DNA of 64,000 nucleotides from Anaeromyxobacteraceae bacterium (GCA_047602405.1 JASGHJ010000001.1:32001-96000); one strand, 5' to 3'; positions 7,786-63,543 are shown, counted from the first letter of the stretch. Notes: generated by a model not told the origin, from the letters alone. A program made the numbers and translations.

Positions 7786-8114
7786 ACCCGCCCATCCCGC
7801 CCGCCCGAAAACGGATCCTGTCCTGATCACAGGATCTTGCGGCGATGGTCCAGCCTAGACTCTAGGGATCACGAGCGCAAGTAATCGCGCGACATCGCGG
7901 GGGTTCGTCGGGGACCCCACCCGCCCTCCGAGGGGCGCTCCCCGGGGGCCGGCGCCCGCCCCGGCCCCGGGTGCGACCCGCGCCCACCCCGGCGTCACCG
8001 TGGGTGACGTTCCGACCTTTCCGCGTCACCGGCTCCCGGGATGCCCGCGCGGACCTGTCCTGGATCAATATTCACCCTCGGTCGGGAGGACGGACCCCAG
8101 CCGGGGAAGCTCGC

Positions 8115-9131
8115 ATGGCGCGCATCTTCATCGTCGAGGGGGAGGACCACGGGGCGGAGCCGCTCGCGATCTCGCTGCGCGCGGCGGGCCACGAGCTCGC
8201 GGGGACGGCGATCTCCGCCTTCGAGGCCTGCGAGCGCGTCGCGCGCACTTCCCCCGACCTCGCCGTCGTGGATCTCCGCTCCCGGAGCGGCGGCGACCAC
8301 CTCGAGCTCGCCGCCGAGCTCGCGCGCCGCTTCGAGGTGCCGACGCTGTTCGTGAGCGGCGCGTCCGATCTCACCACCCTCCGCCGCCTCGGCCGCGTCG
8401 ACCCCGCCGGGGTGCTCGTGCGCCCCTTCGACGACCGCCAGCTCCGCGCCGCCGTGGAGCTCGCCCTCGCCCGCCGCGCCCGCGAGCTCGCCCGCCGCGG
8501 CGAGGCCGACCGCGCCGGGGTCGACGCCGACCTGAAGCTCCTCGCGACGCTGTCCCGGCGGCTCGTGACCGCCCTCGACGCCTCGCCCGGCCCGGCCGAG
8601 CGGCGCGCGCTCGCGGCCGAGCTCGACGACCTCGCGCGGGCCCGCGACGCACGGAGGGCGCCGCTCGCGCGGATCGGCGGGGAGGCGGTCTCGAGGCTGC
8701 GCGAACGCGTCGGCCACCGGGCCATGTTCGAGCTCACCTCAGAGGGCGACCTGTGGGTGGCCGGCCACGAGGGCCAGCTCGTGCGCGCCCTCGAGCTGCT
8801 CGCCACGGTCGCGCTCCAGTCCCACGGGGCCGGTGCGGGCACCTGGCTGCGCCTCGCGCTCCGCCGGGACGAGCTCGGCCTCGCCGAGGTGGAGCTCGCC
8901 GTCACGACCGAGTCCACCGCGCCCTCCCGCGAGGTGGTGCTCGCGGGCCTCCCGGCGAAGGCCGCCTTCGCGGTGGCCGAGGCCATCGTGGTCGCCCACG
9001 GCGGCGCGGTGCACACCGAGCGCGACGGCGCGCGGACGCTCGCACGCGTGACGCTGCCGTGCGTGCCCGCGGAGGAGGGCGCGCTGCCGCTCCGGCTCGT
9101 GCGCGACCCCGTCGCCGCGGCGGCCGGGTAG
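8115..9131 (+). CDS. Receiver domain fused to a degenerate kinase-like domain
   Basis: REC motifs IFIVEGE, PDLAVVD, VRPF. The C-terminus resembles HATPase (IVVAHGGAV...VTLP) but lacks H, N and G boxes. Confidence 0.65.
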   Translation: MARIFIVEGEDHGAEPLAISLRAAGHELAGTAISAFEACERVARTSPDLAVVDLRSRSGGDHLELAAELARRFEVPTLFVSGASDLTTLRRLGRVDPAGVLVRPFDDRQLRAAVELALARRARELARRGEADRAGVDADLKLLATLSRRLVTALDASPGPAERRALAAELDDLARARDARRAPLARIGGEAVSRLRERVGHRAMFELTSEGDLWVAGHEGQLVRALELLATVALQSHGAGAGTWLRLALRRDELGLAEVELAVTTESTAPSREVVLAGLPAKAAFAVAEAIVVAHGGAVHTERDGARTLARVTLPCVPAEEGALPLRLVRDPVAAAAG

Positions 9132-34178: not shown

Positions 34179-34255
34179 GGGCCCTTAGCTCAGTTGGATA
34201 GAGCGTCGGACTACGAATCCGAAGGCCAGAGGTTCGAATCCTCTAGGGCCCGCCA
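34179..34255 (+). tRNA. tRNA-Arg(ACG), integration target of the island
   Basis: GGGCCCT/AGGGCCC acceptor stem, anticodon arm TCGGA-CTACGAA-TCCGA, CCA end. Confidence 0.97.
34210..34253 (+). repeat. attL core (tRNA-Arg 3' half)
   Basis: ACTACGAATCCGAAGGCCAGAGGTTCGAATCCTCTAGGGCCCGC. Confidence 0.9.
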
Positions 34256-34398: not shown

Positions 34399-35511
34399 AT
34401 GGCGCGTCCAACCAGGCATCGGGGCAAGTGGCGGATTCGTTGGTTCGACGAGAACGATCGTCGTCGCAGTGAGGTCTACGAGAAGCTGACTCACGCGAAG
34501 TCGAAGCTCCGCGAACACGAACTGAAGGCAGAGGAGATCAGGCTCGGGATTAGGTCGCCTGACCCGGCTCCTCGCACGTTCGACGACGCGGCCGACTACT
34601 GGCTCAAGCACCGTGCAGTGAACAAGCGGAGCCGGGCCTGCGACGAGTCTATCCTGCGGGTACACCTGCGGCCGTTCTTCGGTGGGATGAAGCTTGCCCG
34701 GATCGGAGTGCAGCAGGTGGACGAGTTCTCCGCCACGAAGACCCACCTTCACAAGAACACCCTGCACCACGTCCTCACCCTTCTGATCTCGCTCCTTCAC
34801 CTGGCCGTCGAACTCGATTGGTTGAGGAAGCTCCCGAAGATCAAGAAGCCGTCGATTAAGCTGTTCACGAAGGACTTCCACTACCTTCGCAACGGAAGCG
34901 AGCTCATCAGGTTTCTTCGTGCGGCCCACGACGAGGGCGACCTCGCCTTCGCCCTGTACGCCACTGCGGTGTTCACCGGCCTACGTCAGGGCGAGTTGGC
35001 CGCACTCCGGTGGAGTGAAGTGAACCTTGAGAAGCGACTGATCTCCGTTGAGCACAGTTGGCATGGACCGACGAAGACCGGCGAGGTCCGTTACGTCCCC
35101 ATTCTCGACCCGCTCCTCCCGGTGCTGCAGGAGTGGCACCTGAAGTGTCCCGGCGAGTTCGTGTTTCCGAATCGGGATGGACGCATGTTCTCGAAGTGCG
35201 CCCGCATCTTCCAGGAGACGTTTCACGACATTCTCGACCGGGCGGGCTTTCCAAAGGTGGAACGCCACGGGCGCACCCGCCGGTACATCAGGTTCCACGA
35301 TCTGCGGCACACCTTTGCCTCCCACTGGATGATGAATAGCGGTGACCTCTTCCGCCTCCAGAGCGTCCTCGGCCACAAGTCGCCGCTGATGACCATGCGT
35401 TATGCGCACCTCGCGCCGGACGCATTCGAGCAGGACCACGCACGCCTGGGCGGCCGACTCGATCTTGAGGACGCGCCTGTCGTCGAGTTGCGCCCAAAGC
35501 CAGCCCAGTAG
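34399..35511 (+). CDS. Tyrosine recombinase / integrase
   Basis: TGLRQGEL (R), TKT (K), FHDLRHT (HxxR), LGH and MRYAH (Y) are all intact. Confidence 0.95.
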   Translation: MARPTRHRGKWRIRWFDENDRRRSEVYEKLTHAKSKLREHELKAEEIRLGIRSPDPAPRTFDDAADYWLKHRAVNKRSRACDESILRVHLRPFFGGMKLARIGVQQVDEFSATKTHLHKNTLHHVLTLLISLLHLAVELDWLRKLPKIKKPSIKLFTKDFHYLRNGSELIRFLRAAHDEGDLAFALYATAVFTGLRQGELAALRWSEVNLEKRLISVEHSWHGPTKTGEVRYVPILDPLLPVLQEWHLKCPGEFVFPNRDGRMFSKCARIFQETFHDILDRAGFPKVERHGRTRRYIRFHDLRHTFASHWMMNSGDLFRLQSVLGHKSPLMTMRYAHLAPDAFEQDHARLGGRLDLEDAPVVELRPKPAQ

Positions 35512-42421: not shown

Positions 42422-45142
42422 CTAGGCGCGCATGCCGAACAGGAAGTTGTGAGACGTGGTGAGCCCCTTGTCCTTGATGCCGTGCTTCTCCACGGTCGTC
42501 ACGTCCTCCGTTACGACCCCCAGATCGTCGAACTGCTCCTTCATCAGCTGATGAAGGTGTTCAACCATCCGGTGGCGATCGGATCCACCCAGGTGGACGA
42601 CGAGTAGGCCACCCGGGCGAAGCATCTTCTGGCACGCATCAAAGAAGTCTCGATAGATATCGAGGTCCTTGGTTTGCTGACGTTCGAGGAACGCGAGGCT
42701 GCGAGTGTGGAAGTCGCCCTCTTCCCAGCCGCAGAACCACATCCTCAGCCAGTTGGGACGGTCGAAGCGCATGCCAAGAAACGGCGGAGAGGTTGCGATC
42801 AGATCTGCACCCGACACGTTCTTCGGCAACGCTCGGAAATCACCCCAGTACGACTTGCCGGGCACGTACGTGATCGGCAACGGCTCGCGCAGGGCTGAAT
42901 CGACACGCGCCCGTACGTGCTTGAGAACGGACTTGTACGGGCGCGGCCCCTTTGGGTGAAAAGGTGTGATCGGATGCGAGGTCCGGGAGATGGCGTACGG
43001 CCTGTTTCCGTGGAGTACGTGCAGGAGTGACGCCTTCACGAACAGATCGCCGTCCGACGGGTTGTCGATGCCCAGGAAGTACCGCCTGGCCTTCAGAACC
43101 TCATCAAGCGTGTCCGGGTGAAAGAAGTCAGCTACGCTGCCGTTCAGGCCGAACTCTGCGCTTTTCTTGTCGGCCTCGCCTAGACGCAGGTTGTTGAGGG
43201 CCCGTTCAAGGGCCTGGAGAGATGTCTCGACACTCGATGTCGAAGGGACGCGGATCTTTCCGCTCGCCACGGCGTATGCAAGCGGCGAGAGGTCGTTCGT
43301 GATGGCATTGCGCCCGTTCAGTGCCGCCTCGAATGCCACCGTTCCGATGCCGCCCAACGGATCTACGACTGTCCCCCCTGGATCGGAGAACTGCTCGACG
43401 ATCCAGTGCGCGATGGCAGGCTTCAGTTTGCCCTGATAGCTGCAGAGCGAATGAAGCGGATGCCCCCAGTTACGCTTGGAGAACGGAGCGTCCTTATAGG
43501 GCAACTCGCGCCGGAAGCTCTCAATGCGGCCCTGAATGTCCTTCGGGGCAGCACTGCGAGTGGAGGTCCGTGAAGCTCGTTCGACGGAACCTCCTGAAGA
43601 CTCCCTGTTGCGCCGAGCCCCCGGAGATCTCTTTAGAACGATTTCTACCTGGTGGAGCTTTGAACGGTCATAGGAGTAGCGGCGCGCGAGGACCCTTGTG
43701 GAGTCCACAAGGAGCCCGGCTTCGACGGCTACGTTGGCCAGGAGTACGTCGGTGGGGACATGGACTCCGTAGAACTTGGAGTCTCCGATATCCAGCACGA
43801 ACCGCCCGACAGGTTCCATCCGCTCCCGCGTGGCTTTCAGCATGTCGAACATGTCTGAGAAGTAGTGGCGGACAAGCAAGGGAATGCGTTTGTCTCCACG
43901 CCCCTCAAGCTCGGCGACGACCTTCTCGACTTGGTCGAAGTGATGAACATTCGACCGGCCCCGGGAAACGCTGTTGATGCCAGCGGTAATGCCGGACCTG
44001 TGGAGGCTGCCCAGTTCCGTCTCGGACGAAAGCCAACCAAGGAGCCAGAGTTCGAGCTTGGTGTTTCGGAAGTAGTTCGTGCCGTTCAGGTAGGGCGGCG
44101 ACGTGATGATGAGGGTGTACTGCCCGGTGTCCTTGCCCTCGGCCCTTGAGTCCTCGGACGCAAGGCGGGTGGGGGCGATCGGCCCCTGAGGAGAGCTCAG
44201 GTCCTCCACCATCTCGTTGACCTTGCTGGAAATAAACCCGGGGACATCCACGACGCGATTCGTGTACTCGCCGGGGCGACGACGGCGTAGGTCGGCCCGG
44301 CGAGTCATGTTCGATGACTTAACGACGTTCGAACCCACCGCTAGAAGCAGCAGCGCTCTCGCGTGTTCATTCTTGGCGACCTTCCGGGCCAAATCTCTGG
44401 CGGCGATCAGCTCACGGAGGTGTTGTTCAACGAAGAAGTCCCTTTCGTCGAAGGCTGCCTCGTACTCCTCCATGCTGACTGCCTGACACAGGCGTTCGAA
44501 TGCCTTGGACTGAACAACCGCGAGGTACTCGGTTGCGGTCCGTTTGAACGCAGCGAGATGCTGTCGGGCCCACGCGGCAGAGTTGATCTTCGTCTCTGCG
44601 ACAAACCGCATGAAGGGGTTAATTTCGGCGTACGCAGACGGGATGCCTCGAATGCTTGCTTCGAGAAGCGTGGTTCCTGCGCCGCCGAAGGGATCGTAGA
44701 CAGTTCGCGGGTGGCCGAACCTGCCCAGGAGTTCCGCAACGTAGTCGGCCGAGAACCCTTCCACGTACGGATACCAGCGATGATACGGGACGGTCTTGCT
44801 GTCTCGGAAGGTGAGCCCTACCGAGGGCGAGTCGGTGACATCAGGCGTCAACGGAAGTTGCTGCTGACGTGCGACGGTGTTGGAGCGCGCGGCCATCTGG
44901 CTCACTCTTTCCGAAAGGACGAGAAGGACGTGGTTGTTGAGAGTGCGGTGGGACCTGTGCGCTGCGTCGCTCAGGTCCTCAAACACGGGGTCGCCCAGCA
45001 GCCCGCGCACGGCGCGACTGGAGAGGGCGAGTAGGTGACTCGTCGAAGGATCGCCAGCGGGTACGCCAAGCGTGAAGCGCCGGGCGCGACCAGAGCGGGT
45101 TCTCTCGGGCGGGAAGTAGAGCGTCTTGAACGTCTGGGCCAT
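42422..45142 (-). CDS. Fused double amino-DNA methyltransferase (M1+M2) of a type IIS RM system
   Basis: Two full motif sets: YDPFGGAGTT...ITSPPY and VDPLGGIGT...ATSPPF. HRWYPY.EGFS and HSLCSYQGK starts. Confidence 0.88.
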   Translation of the reverse strand: MAQTFKTLYFPPERTRSGRARRFTLGVPAGDPSTSHLLALSSRAVRGLLGDPVFEDLSDAAHRSHRTLNNHVLLVLSERVSQMAARSNTVARQQQLPLTPDVTDSPSVGLTFRDSKTVPYHRWYPYVEGFSADYVAELLGRFGHPRTVYDPFGGAGTTLLEASIRGIPSAYAEINPFMRFVAETKINSAAWARQHLAAFKRTATEYLAVVQSKAFERLCQAVSMEEYEAAFDERDFFVEQHLRELIAARDLARKVAKNEHARALLLLAVGSNVVKSSNMTRRADLRRRRPGEYTNRVVDVPGFISSKVNEMVEDLSSPQGPIAPTRLASEDSRAEGKDTGQYTLIITSPPYLNGTNYFRNTKLELWLLGWLSSETELGSLHRSGITAGINSVSRGRSNVHHFDQVEKVVAELEGRGDKRIPLLVRHYFSDMFDMLKATRERMEPVGRFVLDIGDSKFYGVHVPTDVLLANVAVEAGLLVDSTRVLARRYSYDRSKLHQVEIVLKRSPGARRNRESSGGSVERASRTSTRSAAPKDIQGRIESFRRELPYKDAPFSKRNWGHPLHSLCSYQGKLKPAIAHWIVEQFSDPGGTVVDPLGGIGTVAFEAALNGRNAITNDLSPLAYAVASGKIRVPSTSSVETSLQALERALNNLRLGEADKKSAEFGLNGSVADFFHPDTLDEVLKARRYFLGIDNPSDGDLFVKASLLHVLHGNRPYAISRTSHPITPFHPKGPRPYKSVLKHVRARVDSALREPLPITYVPGKSYWGDFRALPKNVSGADLIATSPPFLGMRFDRPNWLRMWFCGWEEGDFHTRSLAFLERQQTKDLDIYRDFFDACQKMLRPGGLLVVHLGGSDRHRMVEHLHQLMKEQFDDLGVVTEDVTTVEKHGIKDKGLTTSHNFLFGMRA

Positions 45143-45602: not shown

Positions 45603-46222
45603 CTTCGCCTCCCCCGGGGCCGAACGTCTTGATATCAGTGGCGGTTGTCAGTGTGATTTCAGGTACTTCTGCGCCCGGACTTGATTTAAGATATCAGAAA
45701 ACCCCGGAGGAGGCACATGGTTCCTATACAGAGGGACGGGTCGGCCACGTCCAAAATCAGGGCCGCGCGATACATCCGCGTCTCGCGGTCAGATCAGCGC
45801 CCAGCGCTTCAAGCCGACGAAACCGCCGAGTTCATCCAGAGGCGCGGGTGGAGTCTCGTAGACACGTACATCGACGAAGGGGTCAGCGGCACCAAGGCCC
45901 GGCGGCCAGAACTCGACAGACTTCTGGCCGCAGCACGCCACCGCCAGTTCGACGTTCTCGTCGTGTGGCGGTCCGACCGCCTGTTTCGCAGTCTCAAACA
46001 CATGGTCATCACGCTGGGAGAACTTGCTGCGGGTTCCGGCCCATGGCGATCACGGATTCCGGAGCAAGCCGATCACTGATTCCGGTCGAAGCCGACCACC
46101 GATTCCGGAGCATGCCGATCGCTGAACGAACGGCCAGCTGAGGCCGTCGGTCGCAGTCAGCGCGGGCGCGTTGACGCCGCTGGGTAGTCCGCCGCTCTTG
46201 CCGCCTCCACAAGGGAGGCGGG

Positions 46223-47764
46223 ATGGCGGCCGAGAGGCTACCGATGCGGAAGCTGCGAGAGGTCATCAGGCTGAAGCTGCAGGCCGGCCAGTCCGGCCGT
46301 GCGATCGCGCGGGCGTGCGGGATCTCGTCGAGCACGGTGAGCGAGTACCTCGGGCGCATCGCGCTCGCCGGCCTCACCTGGCCGCTCCCGCCCGAGCTCG
46401 ACGACGACGCGCTCGAGCGGCTCCTCTTCCCCGACGAGCGCCATCCGGTGTCGAACCGGCCCGAGCCAGAGTGGAGCTTCATCCACCGCGAGCTGCAGCG
46501 GCGGCACGTGACGAAGCAGCTACTCTGGCAGGAGTACAAGGAGGCGACGCCGGAGGGGCTGCAGTACAGCCAGTTCTGCGACAAGTACCTGCGCTGGGCG
46601 AAGCCGCTGTCGGCGACGATGCGGCAGGCCCATCGCGCCGGCGAGAAGACCTTCATCGACTTCAGCGGGAGCGGGCTCGAGCTCGTGCACCCCGCCACCA
46701 GCGACCGCAAGAAGGTGGTGCTCTTCTTGGCGGTGCTCGGCGCCTCGAACCTGACGTACGCGGAGCCGGTGCTGAACCAGGATCTCCCGACCTGGATCGG
46801 TTGCCACGCCCGCGCCTTCGAGTACTTCGGAGGCGCGACCGAGATCTGGGTGCCCGACAATCCTCGGGTCGGCGTGACGAAGGCGAGCAAGTACGAGCCG
46901 GTGCTCAACCGGTCGTACGAGGACCTCGCCGCCCACTACGGCGCGGCGGTGATCCCGGCGCGCCCGTACCGGCCGCGCGACAAGGCGAAGGTGGAGGTGG
47001 CGGTCCAGATCGCCTCGCGCTGGATCCTGGCGGTGCTGCGGAATCGCGTCTTCTACTCGATGGAGGAGATGCGGGCGGCGGTGGCGGGGCTGCTCGAGAA
47101 GCTGAACCACCGGCAGATGCGGCGCCTGAAGAAGTCGCGGCGCGAGCTCTTCGAGGAGATCGAGCGCGCCGCCCTGAAGCCCTTGCCGGCGCAGCCCTAC
47201 GAGTACGCCGAGTGGGCTCGGCCGAGGGTCGACCTCAGCTACCACGTCGAGCACGACGACCACTTCTACAGCGTCCACTTCTCGCACATCGGCGAGCAGC
47301 TCGACCTGCGCGCGACCGAGTCCACCGTCGAGATCTTCCGGCGGGGCACGCGGATCGAGAGCTATCCGCGCAGCTACGCGAAGGGGAAGTACACCACGCG
47401 CAAGGAGCACATGCCGCGCGCCCATCTCGACCAGGTCGAGTGGACGCCCGAGCGGCTGACGAACTGGGCGCGAACGACGGGGCCCCACACCGCCGCCCTC
47501 GTCGAGGCGATCATGGCCTCGAAGGGACACCCGCAGCAGGGCTTCAAGGCGTGCCTCGGCGTGCTGCGGCTCGCGAAGCAGTATCCCGCCCAGCGGATCG
47601 AGCGGGCGGCGGCGCGGGCGCTGCACTGCCGGACGCTCTCCTCGGGGAGCGTCGCCTCGATGCTCAAGAACAACCTCGACCAGCTGCCGCTGCCCGGCGA
47701 GGAGGAGCCGCAGCAGGCGCTGCCCCTCCACGAGAACATCCGCGGCCGCAGCTACTACCACTGA
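46223..47764 (+). CDS. istA: IstA transposase
   Basis: GEKTFIDFSG, VPDN, PRDKAKVE, HENIRGRSYYH. Confidence 0.93.
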   Translation: MAAERLPMRKLREVIRLKLQAGQSGRAIARACGISSSTVSEYLGRIALAGLTWPLPPELDDDALERLLFPDERHPVSNRPEPEWSFIHRELQRRHVTKQLLWQEYKEATPEGLQYSQFCDKYLRWAKPLSATMRQAHRAGEKTFIDFSGSGLELVHPATSDRKKVVLFLAVLGASNLTYAEPVLNQDLPTWIGCHARAFEYFGGATEIWVPDNPRVGVTKASKYEPVLNRSYEDLAAHYGAAVIPARPYRPRDKAKVEVAVQIASRWILAVLRNRVFYSMEEMRAAVAGLLEKLNHRQMRRLKKSRRELFEEIERAALKPLPAQPYEYAEWARPRVDLSYHVEHDDHFYSVHFSHIGEQLDLRATESTVEIFRRGTRIESYPRSYAKGKYTTRKEHMPRAHLDQVEWTPERLTNWARTTGPHTAALVEAIMASKGHPQQGFKACLGVLRLAKQYPAQRIERAAARALHCRTLSSGSVASMLKNNLDQLPLPGEEEPQQALPLHENIRGRSYYH

Positions 47765-47855
47765 CCACCCGAGACCGCGCCGACGCGGCCTCGCGGCGCC
47801 CCGGTGCCGGGCACGACGCCCGCGCGCCGACCTCATCGAGGCCAGGGAGAAGTGC

Positions 47856-48614
47856 ATGCTCGTGGAGCAGACGATGGAGAAGCTCGTCGCGATGAAGCTC
47901 AGCGGGATGGCGGAGGCGCTGCGCCGCTGGATGGAGCAGCCCAAGGAGAAGGAGATGACGCCGCTCGATCTCGTGGGCTTGCTCGCCGACGCCGAGTGGC
48001 GTCACCGGGAGCAGCGGAAGCTGACCGGCAGGCTGCGGACCGCGCGCTTCCGCCAGGACGCCTGCATGGAGGATGTCGATTACCAGCACCCCCGCGGCCT
48101 CCAGAAGGCGGTGATGCTCGACCTCGCGACGTGCCGCTGGGTGGACGCCCACCAGAACGTGATCTTCAGCGGCCTGACCGGCGTCGGGAAGAGCTACCTC
48201 GCCTGCGCGCTCGGCCAGAAGGCGTGCCGCGAGGGCCACTCCGTCGTCTACCGCCGCGCCTCGCGTCTCTACGACGAGCTCGCCCAAGCGCGCGCCGACG
48301 GAACTTACCTCCTCCTGCTCCGCCGCCTCGCCAAGACCGACGTCCTCGTGGTCGACGACTTCGGCCTCGAAGTGCTGAGCACGACCCAGCGCCGGGACTT
48401 CCTGGAGGTGATGGAGGACCGCTACGGCATCTCGTCGACCATCATCACGAGCCAGCTCGATCCCAAGAACTGGCACTCCATCATCGGCGACGAGACCATC
48501 GCCGACTCGGTTTGCGACCGACTCATCCACAACGCACACAAGGTGAAGCTCAGCGGCGAGTCGCTCAGGAAGACGAGGGCGGACTTGACCAAGGGCCAGA
48601 AGCCGGCGAAGTAG
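47856..48614 (+). CDS. istB: IstB ATPase
   Basis: GLTGVGKSYLA, VVDDFG, ITSQ. Confidence 0.93.
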   Translation: MLVEQTMEKLVAMKLSGMAEALRRWMEQPKEKEMTPLDLVGLLADAEWRHREQRKLTGRLRTARFRQDACMEDVDYQHPRGLQKAVMLDLATCRWVDAHQNVIFSGLTGVGKSYLACALGQKACREGHSVVYRRASRLYDELAQARADGTYLLLLRRLAKTDVLVVDDFGLEVLSTTQRRDFLEVMEDRYGISSTIITSQLDPKNWHSIIGDETIADSVCDRLIHNAHKVKLSGESLRKTRADLTKGQKPAK

Positions 48615-49158
48615 ACCTACCCAGCGGCGTCACGCCCCGGGTGATCGCCTTGCCGGTACAGGTGATCGGCATCGGCCGGAATGGCCGATCGGCATGGCCG
48701 GAATCCGCACTTGCCGCTCTCGGTGTCGAGTTCGTTAGCGTGACGGAACCATTCGACACGACCACACCGCAAGGGCGGCTACTACTGCACCTGGTCGCCG
48801 CATTCGCCGAGTTCGAGCGGGGAGTCCTTGTCGAACGAACCCGCGCAGGACTCGCGGCAGCCCGTCGTCGTGGCGCGCACATCGGAAGGCCCCGAATCCA
48901 GGTGGATCGGACTCGCGTCATCGAGCTCCACAAAGCCAAGAAGTCGATCCGCCAGATCGCTCGCGAGATGCAGATCGGCGCGACCACTGTGCACCGGCTG
49001 TTGAAGAACACCGAACCCACCGAGTAGTTCGCCTCACCGCAGTTCCCTCCCCATCCCCGGTCCGCGAGTGGCGCACGAGGCGCGGCCACAACGCTACTGG
49101 TGCGCGCTCGCGACCGGGATGCCCAGGGAACGCAACCCAGGATTTGGAAGGAGATGAG

Positions 49159-49779
49159 ATGCAGGACCGGCTTGTCGTTTTGGAAGCAGCCTGGGACGAC
49201 GAATTCATGGATAAGCGTACCGTCCGACCGTTCATCGACGGATGGGCGGCCAACGCGCGAATCGGATACGCCTACCGGGCGTACAACGGGCGTGAGGACC
49301 TTCTCCACTGGCTTATTCGATTCTGCGAGGACCCGATAGCAGACACCCTTTACATCGCGGGACATGGTGACCGGGGACGGCTTGTTGGCCTCGACAACCG
49401 GCGCATCGACATCGCCTCGCTCTTGCGCGAGGTGTTCGAGAAGGGACGCCCCCAGAGAGGAGGCAAGAAGAAGGGCGTACTCATCGGCGCGTGCGAGTGT
49501 CTTGGGCCGCGTCTGCGGACGCGAGTGCTTGCGAACACAAATCGCAGGCTTCACTGGTTGGCGGGCTACTCAGTCGAGATCCCGTGGCTGGACTCGATGT
49601 TGGTTGATGTCGCGTTCCTTGAGTACCGATACAGAGGTGGTCCACGCCACCGGAGCATGACTCGTGAGCCAGGTGCGTACCTGCAACGCCGGTACGGAAC
49701 AGTGGACCGGGTTTCGAAGTGGGTCGTGCGGGACTTCCCTCTCGCAGAGAAGTGGGGATTCGGGGTGGCGACGCGATGA
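49159..49779 (+). CDS. DUF6642-like protein with a caspase/CHAT-like His-Cys dyad
   Basis: LVVLE..W, LYIAGHG, LIGAC, LAGY...IPWLDS. Confidence 0.65.
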   Translation: MQDRLVVLEAAWDDEFMDKRTVRPFIDGWAANARIGYAYRAYNGREDLLHWLIRFCEDPIADTLYIAGHGDRGRLVGLDNRRIDIASLLREVFEKGRPQRGGKKKGVLIGACECLGPRLRTRVLANTNRRLHWLAGYSVEIPWLDSMLVDVAFLEYRYRGGPRHRSMTREPGAYLQRRYGTVDRVSKWVVRDFPLAEKWGFGVATR

Positions 49780-50405
49780 AGACCACCCTTCTGTGCTTCT
49801 CGGACCTTCATCGTGATCTCGCGGCGGCTCGCCGCCTTGCCGGACTTGCCCTCGGCGGTCGGTACGCGTTTCTCATCAGCGCCGGGGACCTTGGAGTGGA
49901 CGGCGTTCACGAGCCCGGCCTGACTTCTCTGATCGCGAAGGGAGGAACAGAGATCCTGTCAGTTCCGGGCAACCACGATGGCACCGCTTCCTACCAGGCA
50001 GAGGCACATGGAGGTGGGTGGACGGACCTGGACGGACGGACTGTCAAACGAGGCGAGTGGTGGTTCGCTGGGATCGGCCTCCTTCCTGCGCCGTACACAA
50101 CCAGTTCGCCCGCCCGGGATTTCGAGACTCGCACCGCCTTGCTCCTAGAGAGCTTCGCCCACCTGCCTCTGAGCAGGCTCGTTCTTGTGACCCACGTTCC
50201 ACCTTCGGAGACCATCGCCGCGCGAGATCGGCGCTTCATCGATCGCGGAAGCGTTGTTCTCGCGAACTGGCTTCAGTCCCACCCTGTGGCCGCCGTGGTC
50301 TGCGGCCACGTCCATCACCCAGAACCCGTGGTGACTGAAATCGGAAGTACGAGGATCATCGTTGGCGGCCCCTGGGCGTCCGAACTGACGCTCGGAAACG
50401 ATTGA
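49776..50405 (+). CDS. Calcineurin-like metallophosphoesterase
   Basis: SDLH, AGD, PGNHD, THVP, CGHVH. ATGA overlap with the upstream gene. Confidence 0.88.
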   Translation: MKTTLLCFSDLHRDLAAARRLAGLALGGRYAFLISAGDLGVDGVHEPGLTSLIAKGGTEILSVPGNHDGTASYQAEAHGGGWTDLDGRTVKRGEWWFAGIGLLPAPYTTSSPARDFETRTALLLESFAHLPLSRLVLVTHVPPSETIAARDRRFIDRGSVVLANWLQSHPVAAVVCGHVHHPEPVVTEIGSTRIIVGGPWASELTLGND

Positions 50406-50438: not shown

Positions 50439-51753
50439 CTACTCGTCGTCCAGGGGCGGCAGTGTCGCTCCAACCCCGAACGGACCTGTGACTCCGCTGC
50501 CAGGGACGAACACCATTGATACAGGCGGTTCCTTTCCGAACCGCCTTGAGCCCGGCACGAAGTGCGCGTGTTCCTGAAAGTCGAAGCGTCCGCCCATCGT
50601 CACGTCAATCTCGAACTCGTTGAACACAAGCCACCCGAAGCGCTTGCGCTTCTCCTTCAGTGTCTCAACGAAGTGCTTGAGCTCCGCGACTCTGGGCCCA
50701 ACCCCCGCGATGCGTTCAAGGCAGACGTGAAGAACTGTGTCTTCTCCTGCGGCCTCAAGCTGTTCAAGTCCCTTGAAGACGCGGGCGTAGCCGAACCTTC
50801 TGGCACGCTGCATGGCCTTTTCGTTCGTAACTGCCCACTTCACCCCAGCTACCCAGGAGAGGGCAACCGCGTAGGACGGGCCCGCCATACGTCCACGGTG
50901 AGCATCTACCAGTCCATGCCAGGGCCCGCCCGAAGCGTATTCGAATTGATCCCAGAAGTACGCGGGCGAGGGGATAAGGATGAGGTTCTCGGGCGGGTCG
51001 AGAGGGACGAGCCCCCTGGCGAAGACGGTCCCTTCGGGCCTAACGATCGCACCACCTGAGGCGAGTGCGCCGAAGGCATCCCGCACCAGCTGTTGTGGGT
51101 CGAGCTGCGGCGTTTCGGTGGCGATCTTCCACTCGATAACCGCCGACACCTTCTCCGAATCGAGCACATGAATCAGTGGTGTCGTTGCGTCGCGTACCGC
51201 GTCACGGATGCGTGGGGAAGCGTCCGTCATCCGATCGAACTTCTTGCATTCGACGTGTAGCCGGCCCCGGCGAGTCTGAACCGAGAAGTCAGGGGTGGGC
51301 GTGGAAGACGCGGGGATGAACGCGAGATCTGTTATCGCCGGGTGCACGGCGTACCGGGCCGCGACAACAACCTCGAAAAGCGCCGCCTCGAAGTCATCGA
51401 ACTCGATGGCGCGTGCGAGACGGTCGAATCCGTTGCTCGTACCCGGAAGAGTGGGTCGTGATCGTTCGGAGCGCTGAGGCGAGTATCCGCGTGAAGGGTA
51501 GATAGCGCGCAACTCGAAACACATCGAAGAAGAGTGAGGCGTTCGGCTGTCTTAGGTGGCTCTCAACTACGAGAAGCACCCGGACAAGCGCGGGAACTTG
51601 AACCTCGTGGTCGGCGATCTTGTCGTAGTACGTGAGAGGGATCTGCCCACCGCTCAGGTAACTATCGAGAAGGCGCTGATCGACCGATACCCCGGTCAGC
51701 TTCCTGATCTCCGCGATGTCCGCTTGAATCGCCTGTCGCTCCGGCGCGTCCAT
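50439..51753 (-). pseudogene. PD-(D/E)XK nuclease-like gene, frameshifted near 51428
   Basis: ALFEVVVAARY...TPDF...VECKK. Two overlapping ORFs join (GYEQRI|DRLAR) if one base is removed. Confidence 0.6.
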
Positions 51754-52048
51754 GCCTGAACGTAACACCTGGTCGGGCGGACAACGAGAACCTCGCAAAC
51801 CGTCCGTCCGCCCGTGCGACGGCCGTGTTCCAGAAACGTCCTAGAACGGGCCTACGGCGGTCCCTGCAAAATTGGGCCGTCCGACGACGTGAGGTGCCGC
51901 ACCGGAACCGACCGGAAACGGAACGGCCAACCGGGGCGCACCGTACACGTCATCCGGGAGGCCGCGAAGGCGGCGGGGCCATACGCACGCGCATCTACCA
52001 GTCACGTGGCGGAGGACCGTCCGTCTTGGTAGCCTGCCATGACAGGCC

Positions 52049-52795
52049 ATGCCGAAGACCTTCCCGGACCTGACCGAAGCGATCGGAACACTTGCCGCAG
52101 CGGTCTCCCAGTGCGCAGAACGCTGCGCCGGTGTCAATTGCGGCCGCGAGGCAGGGGTTCTTCCCCGGTGCCTGTTTGTAGAGCCGGGCACGAACCGAGG
52201 GGGAGTCGGAGACCTCGAAGGCGGCACCGTCGTCGTGGGGCTGAATCCAGGGAAGATGAAGAAGCCCGAGGCCCGCAAGGTCAACGCCCTCCTGGACGCC
52301 GTCGGGAAGGGAAGGGACGCATTCAGCGCAGATGACTGGCGGGCCTACACGGATGCCTACTACGCATGGATGCGAGATACGATCGCCAGCAAGGTGCCCT
52401 ACTACACGCTGCTTCGGCTCCTGGTCCGAGCAGGCGGCAGAAGAGGACCGATCCTCTGGACTGAGATCGTCAAGTGTCAGTCAAAGGACAACGAATCAAC
52501 CGCAAATACGAAGCGTCGTAAGGGCCTGTATAGAGGCCACCAGTCCACGGTGAGGCGGTGTACGTCAGGCTTCCTGGTGAGAGAACTGGATGCCGTGCCG
52601 AAAGACTGGCCCATCTTGGCAGCTGGAGCGGACGCCTTCGACTGGCTATCCGCCAACGCAGATGGGCGGACTGTCGTCGGGGTCCCGCATCCGTCAGGAG
52701 CTGCCTTCCAGTTCTTCACTCTCTTTGCTCCCGTGGGCCTTAATACGGATCGCTTCGAATGGAAGAACGGAAAATGGCATTCCGCCAAGCAATAA
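52049..52795 (+). CDS. Uracil-DNA-glycosylase-superfamily fold protein
   Basis: VVVGLNPG (motif A), LWTEIVKC, ILAAG..A, VPHPS (motif B). Confidence 0.65.
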   Translation: MPKTFPDLTEAIGTLAAAVSQCAERCAGVNCGREAGVLPRCLFVEPGTNRGGVGDLEGGTVVVGLNPGKMKKPEARKVNALLDAVGKGRDAFSADDWRAYTDAYYAWMRDTIASKVPYYTLLRLLVRAGGRRGPILWTEIVKCQSKDNESTANTKRRKGLYRGHQSTVRRCTSGFLVRELDAVPKDWPILAAGADAFDWLSANADGRTVVGVPHPSGAAFQFFTLFAPVGLNTDRFEWKNGKWHSAKQ

Positions 52796-52850
52796 ACCGT
52801 TGCGCCGACGCGAAGACCATGGAATCGGGGCGGTAGACCAGGAGGCGTTC

Positions 52851-54377
52851 GTGAAGGCTCTCCACGAGGTTGACACGTTCGGCGGCATTGATGCGGACGC
52901 AGACACCCTGCTCGACGAGTGCTTCCAGGACCACGAAGCCTACTTGGAGGCGGTGGCTCACAAGCGGCCAGTGGTTCTGGGACGCAAGGGAAGCGGGAAG
53001 ACGGCCATTTTTCGGAAGATCATAAGAACCCGAAAGCATGACTTCTTCTCGTTTGGCCATACCTTTTCAGACTACCCATGGCACCACCACAACCTCCAGG
53101 CGCAGATTGGGGTGCCCGAGGAACTCCGCTATGTCCAAAGTTGGCAGTATCTCATTCTCCTGACGACGGCGAAGCTGCTTCTCAACCAGGACCAGAGTCA
53201 GCCCTGGAGTGAGACCGCGCAGGAGGAGCTGAGCCGCATAGAGAAGTTCGTTGTCGATTCGTACGGAACCCGGGACCCAGATGTCACGCAACTGTTTTCA
53301 CCTGCGAAGCGCCTACGCATTCGTCCGCACATTAGGATCGGGAAGGAATGGGCGGACCTAGGGCTCGATCTTGAACGCCTTCCGGTCTCTGACCTCCCCC
53401 GTGTACTTCAGGAGGTCAACGCGAATGTGAGTCGCGCCGTGGTCGAGTGCCTTAATCCGGAACTCGACTACTTCGTCTGCTTCGACGAGTTGGATCGCGG
53501 GTTCGACCTGAAAAGCGCCACCTACGGCAACATGCTTATCGGCCTGTTGCTCGCGGCGAAGCTGCTCAACGATCAAGCGCGAAACGCCGGGAAGCGCTTC
53601 TCTGTCGTAGTCTTCCTCCGAGACGACATCTACCAGACCCTCAAGTTCGAGGATAAGAACAAGGTCAGCGAGACCCTGGTATCTCGGATCGAGTGGGACT
53701 CAGCACGAACCAAGTGGACACTCCAAGCGCTCATGGAGCGTCGCTTTGAGAAGGTCATCGGCGATGGCGCGAAAGTCCCGTGGTCCACGGTGTTCGATGA
53801 GCTTCATCAGATGCCCGGTCGTCAAACGAAGTACCAGCACATGCTCGACCGGACGTTTCGACGCCCCAGAGACATCATCAAGTTCAGCAATGAAGTGCTT
53901 CATGCCTTCAAGGCCAGGGGGCAGTACGCCGAGACCACGTTCACAAATGACGACGTAAGCAATGCACGCGCGCCGTACTCGGAATACCTGTTGAGAGAGC
54001 TCGAGGACGAGGTGCACAAGCACCTGCCCGCGCATGAGGAGTACTTTGAGATTCTTCGCGCCGTCGGAACCGGACTGTTCGGCCGCGAGGAACTTGAATC
54101 GACCTGCAAGAAGCGCCCCGACCTGCTGAAGGACGGAAGCACTCCCATCCAGGTCTTACGCCAACTCTTCGAGTTCTCTGTCGTCGCCTATCAAAAGACC
54201 GGCGGCGTCGGTGGAGGATCGGAGTACGTGTGGCGACATATCGAAACGCGGGCGCGCTTTGATGAGGCAGCCGTCTACTTCAGGGTGCACCCTGGACTTG
54301 TCGAAGCACTGGGCCTGAAACGGTACGGCTGGAAGAAGCAAGGCGGCGGTGCTGACGCGGACGCAGAGCCCGCCTGA
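52851..54377 (+). CDS. P-loop ATPase (Sll1717/FunZ-like)
   Basis: FG.IDA..D, LGRKGSGKTA, FDELD, FLRDDI, RPRDII. GGAGG RBS before the GTG start. Confidence 0.8.
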   Translation: MKALHEVDTFGGIDADADTLLDECFQDHEAYLEAVAHKRPVVLGRKGSGKTAIFRKIIRTRKHDFFSFGHTFSDYPWHHHNLQAQIGVPEELRYVQSWQYLILLTTAKLLLNQDQSQPWSETAQEELSRIEKFVVDSYGTRDPDVTQLFSPAKRLRIRPHIRIGKEWADLGLDLERLPVSDLPRVLQEVNANVSRAVVECLNPELDYFVCFDELDRGFDLKSATYGNMLIGLLLAAKLLNDQARNAGKRFSVVVFLRDDIYQTLKFEDKNKVSETLVSRIEWDSARTKWTLQALMERRFEKVIGDGAKVPWSTVFDELHQMPGRQTKYQHMLDRTFRRPRDIIKFSNEVLHAFKARGQYAETTFTNDDVSNARAPYSEYLLRELEDEVHKHLPAHEEYFEILRAVGTGLFGREELESTCKKRPDLLKDGSTPIQVLRQLFEFSVVAYQKTGGVGGGSEYVWRHIETRARFDEAAVYFRVHPGLVEALGLKRYGWKKQGGGADADAEPA

Positions 54378-54679
54378 GTCCATCCCGCCTGCGAGCGAGG
54401 TGTCGCCGTCGGCTCGCGCAGCACTCGTATCGCTCCGTATCCGCTTTGGCGACCTGAACGTCGCGTGCCTCGAATCCGGTTGCGATCGAGATACGCGAGA
54501 ATCTTCAGATGCGTTTCGTCTGTTGGAGACCGCGCCTGCGGTCTGCCCCGGTTCCGTATCAACCGTTTCGGGGCATCGTTTCCAACCCCGCGAGAAACGG
54601 CGCACGTCTGAGTCACACGCTACGGCGGAGTGGTCCTTCCAGTCGGAACGGAAGGCCGTCTCACTGTCAGACGAACGCG

Positions 54680-55774
54680 TGCGGATTCCGGCCAACGTGA
54701 ACACCGAGATCGCCGCAACGTGATCGCCGAGATCGGGCATCGTGATCGGAGCGAAGCGACGCTGGCTGGTTCACTTGTCGGACTCGGAGCTCTCCTTTCG
54801 CCGTGAGGGCCCCTTTAGCACGAGGCGATGGGAGTTGTGGAGGACGCGGTCGCAGACGGCGTCGGCGACGGTGGGGTCGCCGATGTGATCGTGCCACCGC
54901 GTCGTCGGCACCTGGCTGGTCATGATGGTCGAGCGGGCGCCGTGCCGGTCCTCGACGATCTCGAGCAGGTCGCGGCGCTCCTGGTCCTTCGGCGGGGCAA
55001 GGCCCCAGTCGTCGATGACGAGCACGTCCACGCGAGCGAAGCGGGCGAGCAGGTTCGCGTAGGTTCCGTCGGCGTGCGCGAGGGTGAGCTCCTCGTTGAG
55101 CCGCGTGGCGCGCCGGTAGATGGCGCGGAAGCCCTTCCGGCAGGCTTGCTGGGCGAGCGCGCAGGCGACGTAGGTCTTGCCGGTACCGGTGGCGCCGGTG
55201 ATGACGACGTTCTGGTGCTCCTCGACCCAGCGGCAGGTCGCGAGCTGGCGGACGGTGGCCTTCTCGAGCTCGCGTCGGGCCGGGTAGTCGATGTCCTCGA
55301 TGCAGGCGTTCGCGAGACGCAGCTTCGCCTCCTGGAGCACGCGGACGAGCCGCTTGTTCTCGCGGTGCAGCCACTGGGCGTCGATGAGCATGCCGAGTCG
55401 TTCGTCGAAGGGCAGCTTCTGGACCTCAGGATTCTTCTGCTGTTCGACCCAGGCGGCGGCGAGGGCGTCGAGGCGCAGCGCGCGCAGCTTCTCCATCGTG
55501 GGTTCCGTGAGCATCGCTTCTCCTGTCAGTGGTAGTAGCCGCCACCCCGCACGTTCTCGTGGGTGGCGGGGGTGGCGCCCTCGGCGACTTCCTCGGCCGG
55601 CGAGGGCAGCCGGTCGAGGCCGTTCTTCAGGATCGAATCGACGTGGCGATAGGAGCGCGCGCGCACGGCGACGGCACGAGCGCACGCCGCCTCGAGTCGC
55701 TCGTCCCCGTACCGCTTGCCGAGGCGCAGAATTCCGAGGCAGGAGCGGTAGCCCTGCTCGGGATGGCGGCGCTC
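54680..55774 (-). mobile_element. IS21 element A, right half (istA C-terminus 55526-55774, istB, IR), inverted
   Basis: HPEQGYRSCLG...HENVRGGGYYH. IR TGCGGATTCCGG. Flank AACGCG is the reverse complement of CGCGTT. Confidence 0.92.
54771..55514 (-). CDS. istB: IstB ATPase of element A
   Basis: GATGTGKTY, VIDDWG, MTSQ. Confidence 0.9.
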   Translation of the reverse strand: MLTEPTMEKLRALRLDALAAAWVEQQKNPEVQKLPFDERLGMLIDAQWLHRENKRLVRVLQEAKLRLANACIEDIDYPARRELEKATVRQLATCRWVEEHQNVVITGATGTGKTYVACALAQQACRKGFRAIYRRATRLNEELTLAHADGTYANLLARFARVDVLVIDDWGLAPPKDQERRDLLEIVEDRHGARSTIMTSQVPTTRWHDHIGDPTVADAVCDRVLHNSHRLVLKGPSRRKESSESDK

Positions 55775-58434: not shown

Positions 58435-58939
58435 CAACCCGAAGATCGGTCGCGACTGGATGCCGAGAGGGCTCCGGCGCTACGTGCTCACGCCCGGCCA
58501 GAACAGGAAGCGGTTCGTCGCCGGTGCGCTCAACGCCACGACCCGCAGGATGACCTGGGTGGAGGCGCCGACCAAGGCGAGCGAGCTCTTCCACAAGCTC
58601 GTGTGGAAGCTCCTGGGCGAGTACCGCGCTGCGCGGCGCATCCACCTCATCCTCGACAACTACATCATCCACTCGAGCAAGAAGACAAAGCGCTTCCTCG
58701 CCCAGTTCGGCGACCGCGTCGTGCTGCACTTCCTGCCCCCGTACTGCCCCGACGACAACCGCATCGAGCGCGTGTGGCTCGACCTGCACGCCAACGTGAC
58801 GCGCAATCACCGCTGCAAGACGATCGAGGAACTGATGGTCCAAGTCATCGCCTTCCTGCGCGCCTACAACCAGCGGAAGAAGCTCAACCCTTCACTCAAG
58901 CTCGCGGCCGGTGTTTCCGGATCGCGATCGGTCGTTTAG
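58435..58939 (+). mobile_element. IS630 element, C-terminal transposase fragment and right end
   Basis: NPKIGRDW continues DEMDVHL. LILDNYIIH, LPPYCP..N.IE.VW. Confidence 0.88.
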
Positions 58940-60198
58940 ATGACGGGCTCGGGGCGCTTGGCAACCTCTTGGAGCATGCGCGTGTGCTCCTTCGGATCTG
59001 CCCGACGCAACGCCTCGAAGAGGTCGATGCCCCGAAGCTCCCGAACCTTCCGCGCTGTCGCATTGAACATGGAAGGATCCCAGGTGCGGGCAAACCCAAC
59101 GATGTCACGCAGGATGCGCTGCAACTCTTTTTCGCAGACCTCCTTCTTCGTGAGGTCGGCGTAAGTCAGTCCCGTCACCTTCGCGAGCTCGCGCAGTTGC
59201 GGCTCGGTGTACACATCGACTGGGAACCTGTCTTTCTTGTGGTTGTTGCACGCCCCACATAGACAGGTCGCATGCTCGTCGATGGGCCAGAGATAGGCCA
59301 TCGGCCGAGTGTGATCGAGCTCCACATCCTTGAGAGCGAGGGGCGTCTTGCACCGGAAACACTTCCGACCGAAACGGTTCCAAACGATGCTCTTGAGCCC
59401 TGCACCCTCCCGTTCCTTGATGGCGTACAGGGCTTCCGGTTCACGCAGGAACAGCTTTCGTTCCCGAGTGATGACCGAGCTCTCGTGAAGTTGGTCAACC
59501 GTCCGCTTGGGATTGAAGTCGTCGTTGATGCGCCACTTCTTGCAGGCGCGGCACTCGTTCTGATGGCCCGTTCTCTTGGCGTTGTGCTTGTGAAACGCGA
59601 GCGTCGCGGGCCGCTTCGTGTCGATAGGCAGCAGCCGCTGGCAATACGCGCACTTCTTCAGCGGGATCGGATCACCGTGTGCCGCCGCGGTGACGGCGTT
59701 CTCCCAACTGCCCATGGCGCGGACGGTCGGACTGGTGTGCGCGAGGTAAAAGGTTTCGGGGACAAGATGCGGCGACGCGAGTTGCGCCACATCCATCTTG
59801 AGCCCCTCAGGTTGACGAACGAGACCCGCATCCAGTCCCCAGAGGCATAGGTCCCCCGCCTCCGTTGGCAGGACGAGCTCGACTGCGAGCTTACCGGGCT
59901 CGGAGGCAGAGCTGATGCCGAAGCGGGTCCAGTGGCGACCGGCGTGGACTCGGACGGACGCGGTTCGGCTCGCAGTCGAGAGCCGGACCTCGACTTCGCA
60001 GGCCCTACGGGCCTTGAGGTAGCCGCCCGCGCATGCAGTGCCGCTTCTTCCCCCCAGGTCGGGCGCGGCGAACCGCAGAACGGCAACGCCAGGCGTAGGT
60101 CCGAGACCTACGAGGAGAGACGGCGCTTCCTGAATCGCTTGGTAGTCCCGGCTCGAACGGACGGCGTCCTTCCGAGACTGCTTCGCCAACCGGCGCAT
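58936..60198 (-). CDS. SapI/BspQI-like HNH type IIS restriction endonuclease
   Basis: LKKCAYC.RLLPID, HQNECRACKKWRIN, LDHTRP.AYLWPIDEHATCLC..CNN.KKDRFP and the N-terminal MRRLA..RDYQ match my recollection of R.SapI. Not verified by search. Confidence 0.8.
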   Translation of the reverse strand: MRRLAKQSRKDAVRSSRDYQAIQEAPSLLVGLGPTPGVAVLRFAAPDLGGRSGTACAGGYLKARRACEVEVRLSTASRTASVRVHAGRHWTRFGISSASEPGKLAVELVLPTEAGDLCLWGLDAGLVRQPEGLKMDVAQLASPHLVPETFYLAHTSPTVRAMGSWENAVTAAAHGDPIPLKKCAYCQRLLPIDTKRPATLAFHKHNAKRTGHQNECRACKKWRINDDFNPKRTVDQLHESSVITRERKLFLREPEALYAIKEREGAGLKSIVWNRFGRKCFRCKTPLALKDVELDHTRPMAYLWPIDEHATCLCGACNNHKKDRFPVDVYTEPQLRELAKVTGLTYADLTKKEVCEKELQRILRDIVGFARTWDPSMFNATARKVRELRGIDLFEALRRADPKEHTRMLQEVAKRPEPVI

Positions 60199-63498: not shown

Positions 63499-63543
63499 AC
63501 TACGAATCCGAAGGCCAGAGGTTCGTATCCTCTAGGGGCCCGC
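63499..63543 (+). repeat. attR, degenerate copy of the tRNA-Arg 3' half
   Basis: ACTACGAATCCGAAGGCCAGAGGTTCGTATCCTCTAGGGGCCCGC: one substitution and one insertion relative to attL. Confidence 0.9.

Follow-up and report, generated by a model that had tools for sequence, protein, structure and literature searches.

We describe two adjacent genes in a 64,000-nucleotide (nt) stretch of the genome of an Anaeromyxobacteraceae bacterium (GCA_047602405.1, JASGHJ010000001.1:32001-96000), which we call the window and whose positions we count from its first letter. [quoted passage not shown] We propose that P0001 is a stand-alone, Brig-like iron-sulphur (Fe-S) glycosylase for a modified cytosine-type base, and that it lies beside an independent defence ATPase resembling DS-41; we assign this reading a probability of about one half. 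A preliminary description of the locus had proposed that the glycosylase acts with the ATPase or is sensed by it, and a two-gene system of that kind is not supported by our analysis. The features on which the argument depends are the following.

52049..52795, + strand: P0001, UDG-superfamily protein, candidate modified-base DNA glycosylase, 248 residues (open reading frame, ORF)
52112..52126, + strand: C22-x3-C26 of P0001, with C143 and C171 the likely [4Fe-4S] ligands (alignment)
52238..52252, + strand: motif A of P0001, GLNPG, residues 64-68; N66 is the likely catalytic Asn (conservation)
52463..52465, + strand: E139 of P0001, Glu at the uracil-reading Asn site of family 4 (alignment)
52475-52477 and 52559-52561, + strand: C143 and C171 of P0001
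52688..52696, + strand: motif B of P0001, HPS, residues 214-216, including H214 (conservation)
52840..52845, + strand: AGGAGG ribosome-binding site of the ATPase gene (sequence)
52851..54377, + strand: P0002, Sll1717-family P-loop (AAA+/Cdc6-like) ATPase, 508 residues, GTG start (ORF, NF047389 match)
52980-53003, + strand: Walker A of the ATPase, GRKGSGKT, residues 44-51 (sequence)
53481-53495, + strand: Walker B of the ATPase, FDELD, residues 211-215 (sequence)
53862-53873, + strand: RPRD of the ATPase, residues 338-341 (sequence)

Both ORFs, the 55-nt gap that separates them on the same strand, and all six motifs first described (the sixth being TEIVKC, residues 138-143 of P0001) are present in the sequence. 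Both genes exceed what chance would produce: the second ORF scores 290.9 bits on NF047389, and a profile of the P0001 family finds 390 clusters at E≤1e-10. The ORF finder's longer option for the ATPase, a 595-residue frame from 52590, is rejected because a 93%-identical relative (P0276) begins at the position of the GTG at 52851, and because the extension upstream of that GTG lacks codon periodicity (guanine-plus-cytosine (GC) content by codon position 0.56/0.60/0.63, versus 0.64/0.38/0.73). No sigma-70-type promoter pattern was matched within 51500-54800, which counts neither way.

Taken alone, P0001 is hard to place: its Pfam UDG match (E 2.4e-4) falls below the cut-off, it has no NCBIfam or PADLOC match, and nothing among PDB sequences comes below E 0.69. 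We therefore describe it through its family. A word search with P0001 yielded six relatives, from which we built the profile; this profile retrieves 530 clusters at E≤0.001, and we put the family at approximately 400-500 clusters at 50% identity. Of 150 listed clusters, we aligned 140, leaving out most longer, fused or partial sequences. The conserved positions are C22, C26, P39, R40, GxNPG, E74, Y100, Y118, W137-T138, K142-C143, C171, E179 and H214, with N66 at 99%, P67 at 100% and H214 at 99%. Motif A appears as GINPG in 53 members, GLNPG in 50 and GMNPG in 20; the commonest motif B is HPTGS (40/140), where P0001 reads HPSGAA. P0001 also has two insertions near the pocket, as its spacings of 73 residues from N66 to E139 (median 57) and 28 from C143 to C171 (median 17) indicate. 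We found no name or description of this family in the literature searched, whose scope excluded most subscription journals; it appears to be undescribed, with Brig1, Brig2 and Brig3 compared by description.

The N-terminus of P0001 had been called non-canonical. It does differ from the usual CxxC, in that the first spacing is CxxxC; nevertheless, these residues correspond to cysteines of the Fe-S site in family 4 and 5 UDGs. All four cysteines (C22, C26, C143 and C171) are present in 128 of the 140 aligned members. In an alignment, the four fall on the CxxC, KC and C positions that serve families 4 and 5 as ligands; the N-terminal cysteines are therefore likely part of an Fe-S site, with metal binding predicted from the alignment.

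The AlphaFold2 (AF2) model of P0001 (predicted local distance difference test score (pLDDT) 87.9, predicted template-modelling score (pTM) 0.88) has a UDG alpha/beta fold, nearest to family 4. A Foldseek search with the model returned nothing at E≤0.001, the best match being SMUG1 at 0.016. Structural realignment, which took in Foldseek's top 1000 chains, placed first the family-4 UDG of S. tokodaii (4ZBX; Z 11.0, root-mean-square deviation 3.5, 156 aligned positions); the family-4 UDGs are followed by UdgX at Z 9-10 and SMUG1 at Z 7-8 (7.2-8.1). Among the 50 realigned matches listed, all are UDG-superfamily entries or a UDG-fused polymerase.

Within this superfamily, the P0001 family stands apart. 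The tree we computed has 29 rows for the family and 23 UDG-superfamily rows from 6 genomes; its references were sorted by motif into family 4, UdgX, family 5, one SMUG1-type and others, with family 1 and the Brig proteins left out. The family forms one side of a branch supported at 100/100; the SMUG1-type row (L137) falls outside the family clade on a long branch, and P0001 and its relative P0003 themselves share a long branch of 1.72. MUG has GINPG as its motif A. P0001 fits the SMUG1/MUG type in motif A, but neither in motif B nor in its grouping. For comparison, the published motifs A and B are GE(A/G)PG and HPAAVL in family 4, GLAPA and HPSPLN in family 5, and GMNPG and HPSPRN in SMUG1 (PMC4787834; here and below, what we take from the literature refers to the available portions of each source).

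An assignment to ordinary family 4 is rejected on the motifs GLNPG and HPSGAA, Glu139, the separate clade, and the lack of a P0001 match to TIGR00758, a model that 3 of the 140 family members do match (best E 0.0025). Likewise, family 5 is rejected: its motifs GLAPA and HPSPLN are not present, and the clade is again separate. The family shares with family 4 (UdgA), family 5 (UdgB) and UdgX the four-Cys pattern and the motif B His, and with family 4 and UdgX the fold (Z 9-11). It differs from them in having GxNPG rather than GE(A/G/Q)PG or GLAPA, in lacking a GxPFVG stretch, in reading W-T-E rather than I-T-N, in forming its own clade, and in being sporadic rather than core.

The third of these differences bears most directly on the substrate. 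The family stretch W-T-E-x-x-K-C aligns to Y-I-T-N-I-V-K-C of the T. thermophilus family-4 UDG (1UI0), and a profile alignment likewise places E139 on the same Asn in family-4 proteins. At this position the 140 members have Glu in 73%, Asp in 20% and Asn in 7% of cases, so that 93% are acidic. Among frames derived from the loci, all 82 are acidic (73 Glu, 9 Asp), the search pattern having been fixed as W[TS]x..[KH]C. In Brig1, the corresponding E147 would bind the Watson-Crick face of the base, the residue there is often Asn (N82 in the S. tokodaii UDG), and both E147A and E147Q impair immunity (PMC11078745). Brig3 requires D127 together with N50, the latter in an N-P-S stretch (10.64898/2026.02.25.707755), and human UNG gains cytosine excision upon the change N204D (PMC4333384). 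By analogy, the Glu/Asp swap points to a cytosine-type base, without proving it.

The literature we searched contains only Brig1, Brig2 and Brig3 as UDG-fold defence glycosylases. Brig1 excises alpha-glucosyl-5-hydroxymethylcytosine and protects against T-even phages (PMC11078745). It resembles P0001 in several respects: its UDG fold is nearest to the S. tokodaii family-4 UDG, it has Glu in place of the uracil-reading Asn, it is approximately 250 residues long, it occurs in a defence-island context, and it acts alone (PMC11078745). The differences are that an Fe-S site is unmentioned in the available passages of that paper, where P0001 has four cysteines, that Brig1 has 42 homologues, mostly in Actinobacteria, against approximately 400-500 clusters for the P0001 family, and that no clear match to Brig1 Y121 or the family-4 Phe was identified in P0001 (PMC11078745). 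Brig3, encoded with BapA, is also a UDG-superfamily defence glycosylase, with an N-P-x motif, an essential pocket Asp and an aromatic cage; the available text mentions neither cysteine nor iron, and it shows that a partner gene can exist, the partner being a glucosidase and not an ATPase (10.64898/2026.02.25.707755). Brig2 is a third such glycosylase, which we compare by description and which may overlap the P0001 family (10.1101/2025.10.29.685425).

We next consider how the family is distributed. The host genome has four canonical UDG-superfamily genes besides P0001, and the P0001 gene is thus an extra one. Repair UDG families were found in 5/5 relatives searched, and the P0001 family in 0/200, where the single weak match is a family-5 UDG. 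Within the phylum the family occurs in 1 of 400 genomes, and in two other phyla in 2/381 and 0/168. It has no match in plasmids (query P0129) or in cultured phages (query P0001), and one in a viral contig. The family is therefore sporadic, and accessory rather than core. The preliminary description set P0001 apart from the ordinary family-4/5 repair UDGs, and we infer the same from its separate clade, the host's four canonical genes, the Brig1-like Glu and the low-GC island described below. As a separate observation, one family member (L138/L154, at G343:C8:35651-36331) contains a stop; its neighbours on either side are ordinary genes, and no ATPase lies within 16 kb.

Our sample of family loci consists of 80 metagenome loci (80 of 148 found) and one viral locus. 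At 30 of the 33 long loci, the family gene has a lower GC content than its flanks (mean -5.2 points), versus 8 of 23 controls (mean +1.2). Furthermore, any given neighbour family recurs in at most 6 of the 81 loci. An AT shift and changing neighbours are typical of defence glycosylases according to Getz et al. (10.1101/2025.10.29.685425), and the P0001 family therefore fits their pattern. We scanned the 150 nearest of 360 neighbouring ORFs (at least 100 residues, within approximately 0.8 kb), representing 73 loci after 5 duplicates were dropped. Restriction-modification or known defence genes are among the nearest ORFs at 13 of these loci (L012, L017, L041, L045, L046, L048, L051, L054, L056, L060, L067, L078 and L086); among them are GmrSD-HNH, SRA-HNH accompanied by REase-ARP, and an EVE protein next to a methyltransferase, and several are methyltransferases. 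Counting any PADLOC match at E≤1e-8 gives 23 of the 73 loci, of which at least 4 are spurious (ABC, RibD, sigma, polymerase).

The second gene encodes a full-length member of the Sll1717 family: its match to NF047389 (290.9 bits against a cut-off of 75, E 2e-86) spans model positions 1-454 of 454. It has at least 1,143 relatives and no PADLOC match, and the literature searched gives no function for Sll1717-family proteins. It had been described as lacking an effector domain. This holds insofar as the AF2 model (pLDDT 83.3) has no added domain; yet the model does suggest a Cdc6/Orc1-like architecture, the top Foldseek match being Cdc6/Orc1 2QBY_A (E 1.1e-3), followed by Sso1545 and BrxC. DS-41 is a single 502-residue gene product with an HHpred match to 2QBY_A and a remote likeness to Avs1B, and its -log efficiency of plating has values that include 5.3 for T4, 5.0 for Bas1 and 3.6 for Bas63 (PMC13092281). 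The ATPase resembles DS-41 (PMC13092281; NF053860) in its size of approximately 500 residues (508 versus 502), in being a single gene with a Cdc6/Orc1-like AAA+ fold, in lacking an added effector domain, in its mobile-element context, and in its top match. We rule out that it is DS-41 itself, since it scores 29.6 bits (E 3.4e-7) on NF053860 against a cut-off of 370, and none of 21 ATPase relatives exceeds 57.7 bits. Judging from the model, the ATPase is built like DS-41, as a remote relative of the same size and fold. Because DS-41 protects as a single gene, an effector-less ATPase of Cdc6-like build needs no partner, contrary to the earlier expectation of a neighbouring effector.

Other Sll1717 ATPases take different forms. 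Some in viral contigs, of approximately 790 residues, carry an N-terminal nucleoside 2-deoxyribosyltransferase/TIR-like (N-glycosidase-type) domain; in the two scanned, the 2-deoxyribosyltransferase-like domain is matched at E 2.2e-8 (L110) and 0.0054 (L112), and L095, L113 and L114 are further long forms. In L099, a separate gene with such a domain (7288-8634) lies 0.8 kb downstream. On the IncFIB/FII plasmids L096 and L098, different Sll1717 ATPases (48% and 23% identical to P0002) occupy the same slot beside repB and an integrase; one of them adjoins pifC and a P-loop NTPase, and the slot is likely a defence hot spot.

If the glycosylase and the ATPase formed one system, their genes should be found together elsewhere. 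They are not: the pairing is not conserved across divergent genomes. From the side of the glycosylase, 0 of the 81 family loci match an ATPase profile at E≤0.01. These loci fall into 74 clusters at 90%; downstream sequence extends for at least 300 nt in 60 of them and for at least 1,600 nt in 38, and the first 80 residues suffice for the profile to detect 30/30 ATPases tested. From the side of the ATPase, 0 of 30 loci match the glycosylase-family profile (best E 0.35), a test that applies to the P0001 family and not to every UDG. The 30 loci comprise 8 from GTDB, 3 from same-class genomes, 3 of 19 plasmid matches and 16 viral ones; their flanks vary, L001 having 100 nt upstream and three loci 1.5 kb, and two pairs are near-duplicates. 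No common upstream partner was seen at the 13 fetched ATPase loci (41-63% identity). Across genomes, several of which are incomplete assemblies, the glycosylase family occurs in 0/10 that bear the ATPase, and NF047389 in 0/3 that bear the family, with G000 matching in the same test. Finally, none of 7,997 long candidates is a glycosylase-ATPase fusion, which is weak evidence, and the longer family members among the 150 listed have unrelated extensions without an ATPase domain (15 scanned).

There is one likely exception. The source of P0003, which is 75% identical to P0001, is a Logan contig of 12,804 nt, and so is that of P0276, which is 93% identical to the ATPase; the equal size suggests that the contig is the same one, and hence that P0003 and P0276 are likely a second copy of the pair. 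Because the ATPases are 93% identical, this copy is best read as the same island, related by shared descent. The lower identity of the glycosylases in the two copies implies faster change in the glycosylase.

Under the stand-alone reading, the UDG-fold glycosylase would flip the base into its pocket, where Glu139 would read a Watson-Crick face bearing an amino group, just as Asn reads uracil in repair UDGs. Asn66 would position the water and His214 would stabilise the leaving base. The resulting abasic sites would stall phage replication, as with Brig1. Such an enzyme would need a base modification, for example at C5, in order to spare host cytosine. The ATPase, for its part, would detect infection and, like DS-41, act without a partner.

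A number of observations weigh against this reading. The equivalence of E139 and Brig1 E147 is drawn from sequence and profile alignment, both residues being mapped onto the family-4 Asn. In E. coli MUG, K68D gained no cytosine activity, and both K68E and K68D still excise mismatch uracil, with raised activity (PMC4333384); a Glu at this site thus does not fix the substrate. Most loci (60/73) have no strict defence gene among their nearest ORFs, and some lie amid housekeeping genes, such as ftsY/ribD in L026 and nusB in L016. The control for the neighbour scan, which covered 121 ORFs at 22 of the 23 housekeeping-UDG loci and gave 0 PADLOC matches, is not taxon-matched and includes orthologues, and a filter on third-position GC content (GC3>0.85) removed L136 from it and left gaps. 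Elsewhere, 1 of 7 integron UDG-like candidates protected (Getz et al., 10.1101/2025.10.29.685425), and a stand-alone 214-residue PF03167 protein was scored non-defensive by DefensePredictor (PMC13092281). The ATPase lies far below the DS-41 cut-off, the long Sll1717 ATPases carry an added domain, and the pair probably has a second copy. At the filtered locus L136 (G190:C1:7353152-7356577), a patch of 56% GC holds a further divergent gene of UDG-like type (PF03167, E 1.4e-7), outside the glycosylase family.

The alternative that survives best, unlikely in our estimation yet deserving of serious weight, is that P0001 is an accessory repair glycosylase, for mismatch uracil, oxidised or deaminated bases, or possibly damage at methylated sites beside methyltransferases, with no anti-phage role and with the ATPase as an unrelated neighbour. 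In fold it is nearest to repair UDGs, it retains the Fe-S cysteines that families 4 and 5 have, and MUG K68E remains active on mismatch uracil (PMC4333384); the scarcity of strict defence neighbours, the fact that several of these are methyltransferases, and the failure of most UDG-like candidates tested by others to protect (10.1101/2025.10.29.685425; PMC13092281) all point the same way. However, the host already has four canonical UDG-superfamily genes, the repair families are found in all relatives searched where the P0001 family is found in none of 200, 93% of members have another residue in place of the uracil-reading Asn, and the AT shift and changing neighbours match the defence-glycosylase pattern (10.1101/2025.10.29.685425).

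A stand-alone defence glycosylase for some other base, such as a 7-deazaguanine derivative, 2-aminoadenine or a hypermodified thymine, is improbable. On chemical grounds, guanine-type bases present an N1-H/N2-H face that Glu could read as well, and P0001 has its two insertions near the pocket. The His of motif B contacts pyrimidine O2 in UDGs, which we count against a base of this kind. Thymine modifications can be targets of the UDG fold, as Brig2 shows (10.1101/2025.10.29.685425), but those UDG-fold enzymes with a pocket acid that are characterised in the literature available (Brig1, Brig3 and UNG N204D) act on cytosine-type bases.

We regard it as scarcely probable that the glycosylase and ATPase are one system in this lineage, with the ATPase amplifying the response after sensing the glycosylase, the abasic product or the glycosylase-DNA complex. 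The genes do lie 55 nt apart on the same strand, they likely have a second copy, P0001 and P0003 share a long branch with insertions, and the ATPases of L110 and L112 carry a nucleoside 2-deoxyribosyltransferase-like domain. Against this, none of the 81 and 30 loci is paired, none of 13 other genomes has both genes, the 13 ATPase loci at 41-63% identity share no upstream partner, the second copy is close enough for shared island descent, and the ATPase gene has its own strong ribosome-binding site. Very improbable is a further possibility, that a widespread Fe-S glycosylase family bridging family-4 repair UDGs and Brig1 gained two insertions in this lineage and was recruited to a Cdc6-like ATPase triggered by base excision on phage DNA; if true, it would be the first glycosylase-sensor/ATPase-amplifier defence system.

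The family offers several hundred diverse candidates with one testable signature, namely Glu or Asp in place of the uracil-reading Asn together with four cysteines. If active, it would add to the phage modifications that glycosylases attack, illustrate the repurposing of a family-4-like repair enzyme, and provide base-specific reagents for mapping modified cytosine. The ATPase, in turn, offers a cheap test of whether members of the common, uncharacterised Sll1717 family defend as single genes like DS-41.

Both genes are cargo of an island of approximately 29 kb, integrated at a tRNA-Arg gene. We conclude this because GC content drops from approximately 0.74 genome-wide to 0.57-0.63 at the locus, and because of the tRNA-Arg gene, the integrase and the repeated tRNA 3' end, whose 45-nt direct repeats are 95.6% identical:

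34179-34255, + strand: tRNA-Arg(ACG) (ARAGORN)
34210..34253, + strand: left attachment repeat, within the 3' end of tRNA-Arg(ACG) (direct-repeat search)
34399-35511: integrase, next to tRNA-Arg (ORF)
63499..63543, + strand: right attachment repeat (45-nt direct repeat)

Also in the island are two frameshifted genes and several insertion sequence (IS) elements, together with genes for a double methyltransferase, an HNH-like protein and a phosphoesterase. The end of an IS21-type element, at 48695-48710, is linked by a perfect 16-nt inverted repeat to the end of another element, at 54679-54694; the 6-kb cargo with both genes therefore sits between two IS ends. The IS21-type element breaks a serine resolvase gene (45717-49027), and a 2,662-nt IS is present in the window in two copies that are 100% identical.

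The methyltransferase is a 906-residue double N4/N6 enzyme (42422-45142, - strand; PADLOC MTase_II, E 1e-132), and the HNH-like protein has 420 residues (58936-60198, - strand) with a weak HNH match (E 0.095); lying 14 kb apart, they are possibly a separated restriction-modification pair. At 49144-50405 (+ strand), a 211-residue protein without a family match is followed by the calcineurin-like phosphoesterase (Pfam E 6.6e-12; PADLOC PDC-S10, E 2e-9). Divergent from the glycosylase gene, at 51798-50439 (- strand), are overlapping frames of 134 and 361 residues, probably one frameshifted gene or an assembly indel; their products have no Pfam, PADLOC or plasmid match, and contain a PDF..VECKK stretch that we take to be a PD..E.K nuclease-like motif.

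The gene at 61660-60616 (- strand) is split over two frames here but intact in relatives (frames of 328-438 residues), with matches in 18 of 300 other genomes of the phylum. Its product has a VHRVGRKLA stretch resembling a helix-hairpin-helix (HhH), a VVDTNV stretch whose Asp is invariant, and a motif of four Cys at the C-terminus; we assume an HhH/EndoIII reading, for which there is no Pfam or PDB support. Neighbours of this gene family include McrC, an N4/N6 methyltransferase and an SMC-like protein, and the product is a candidate for a second, Dag-like glycosylase family in the same island.

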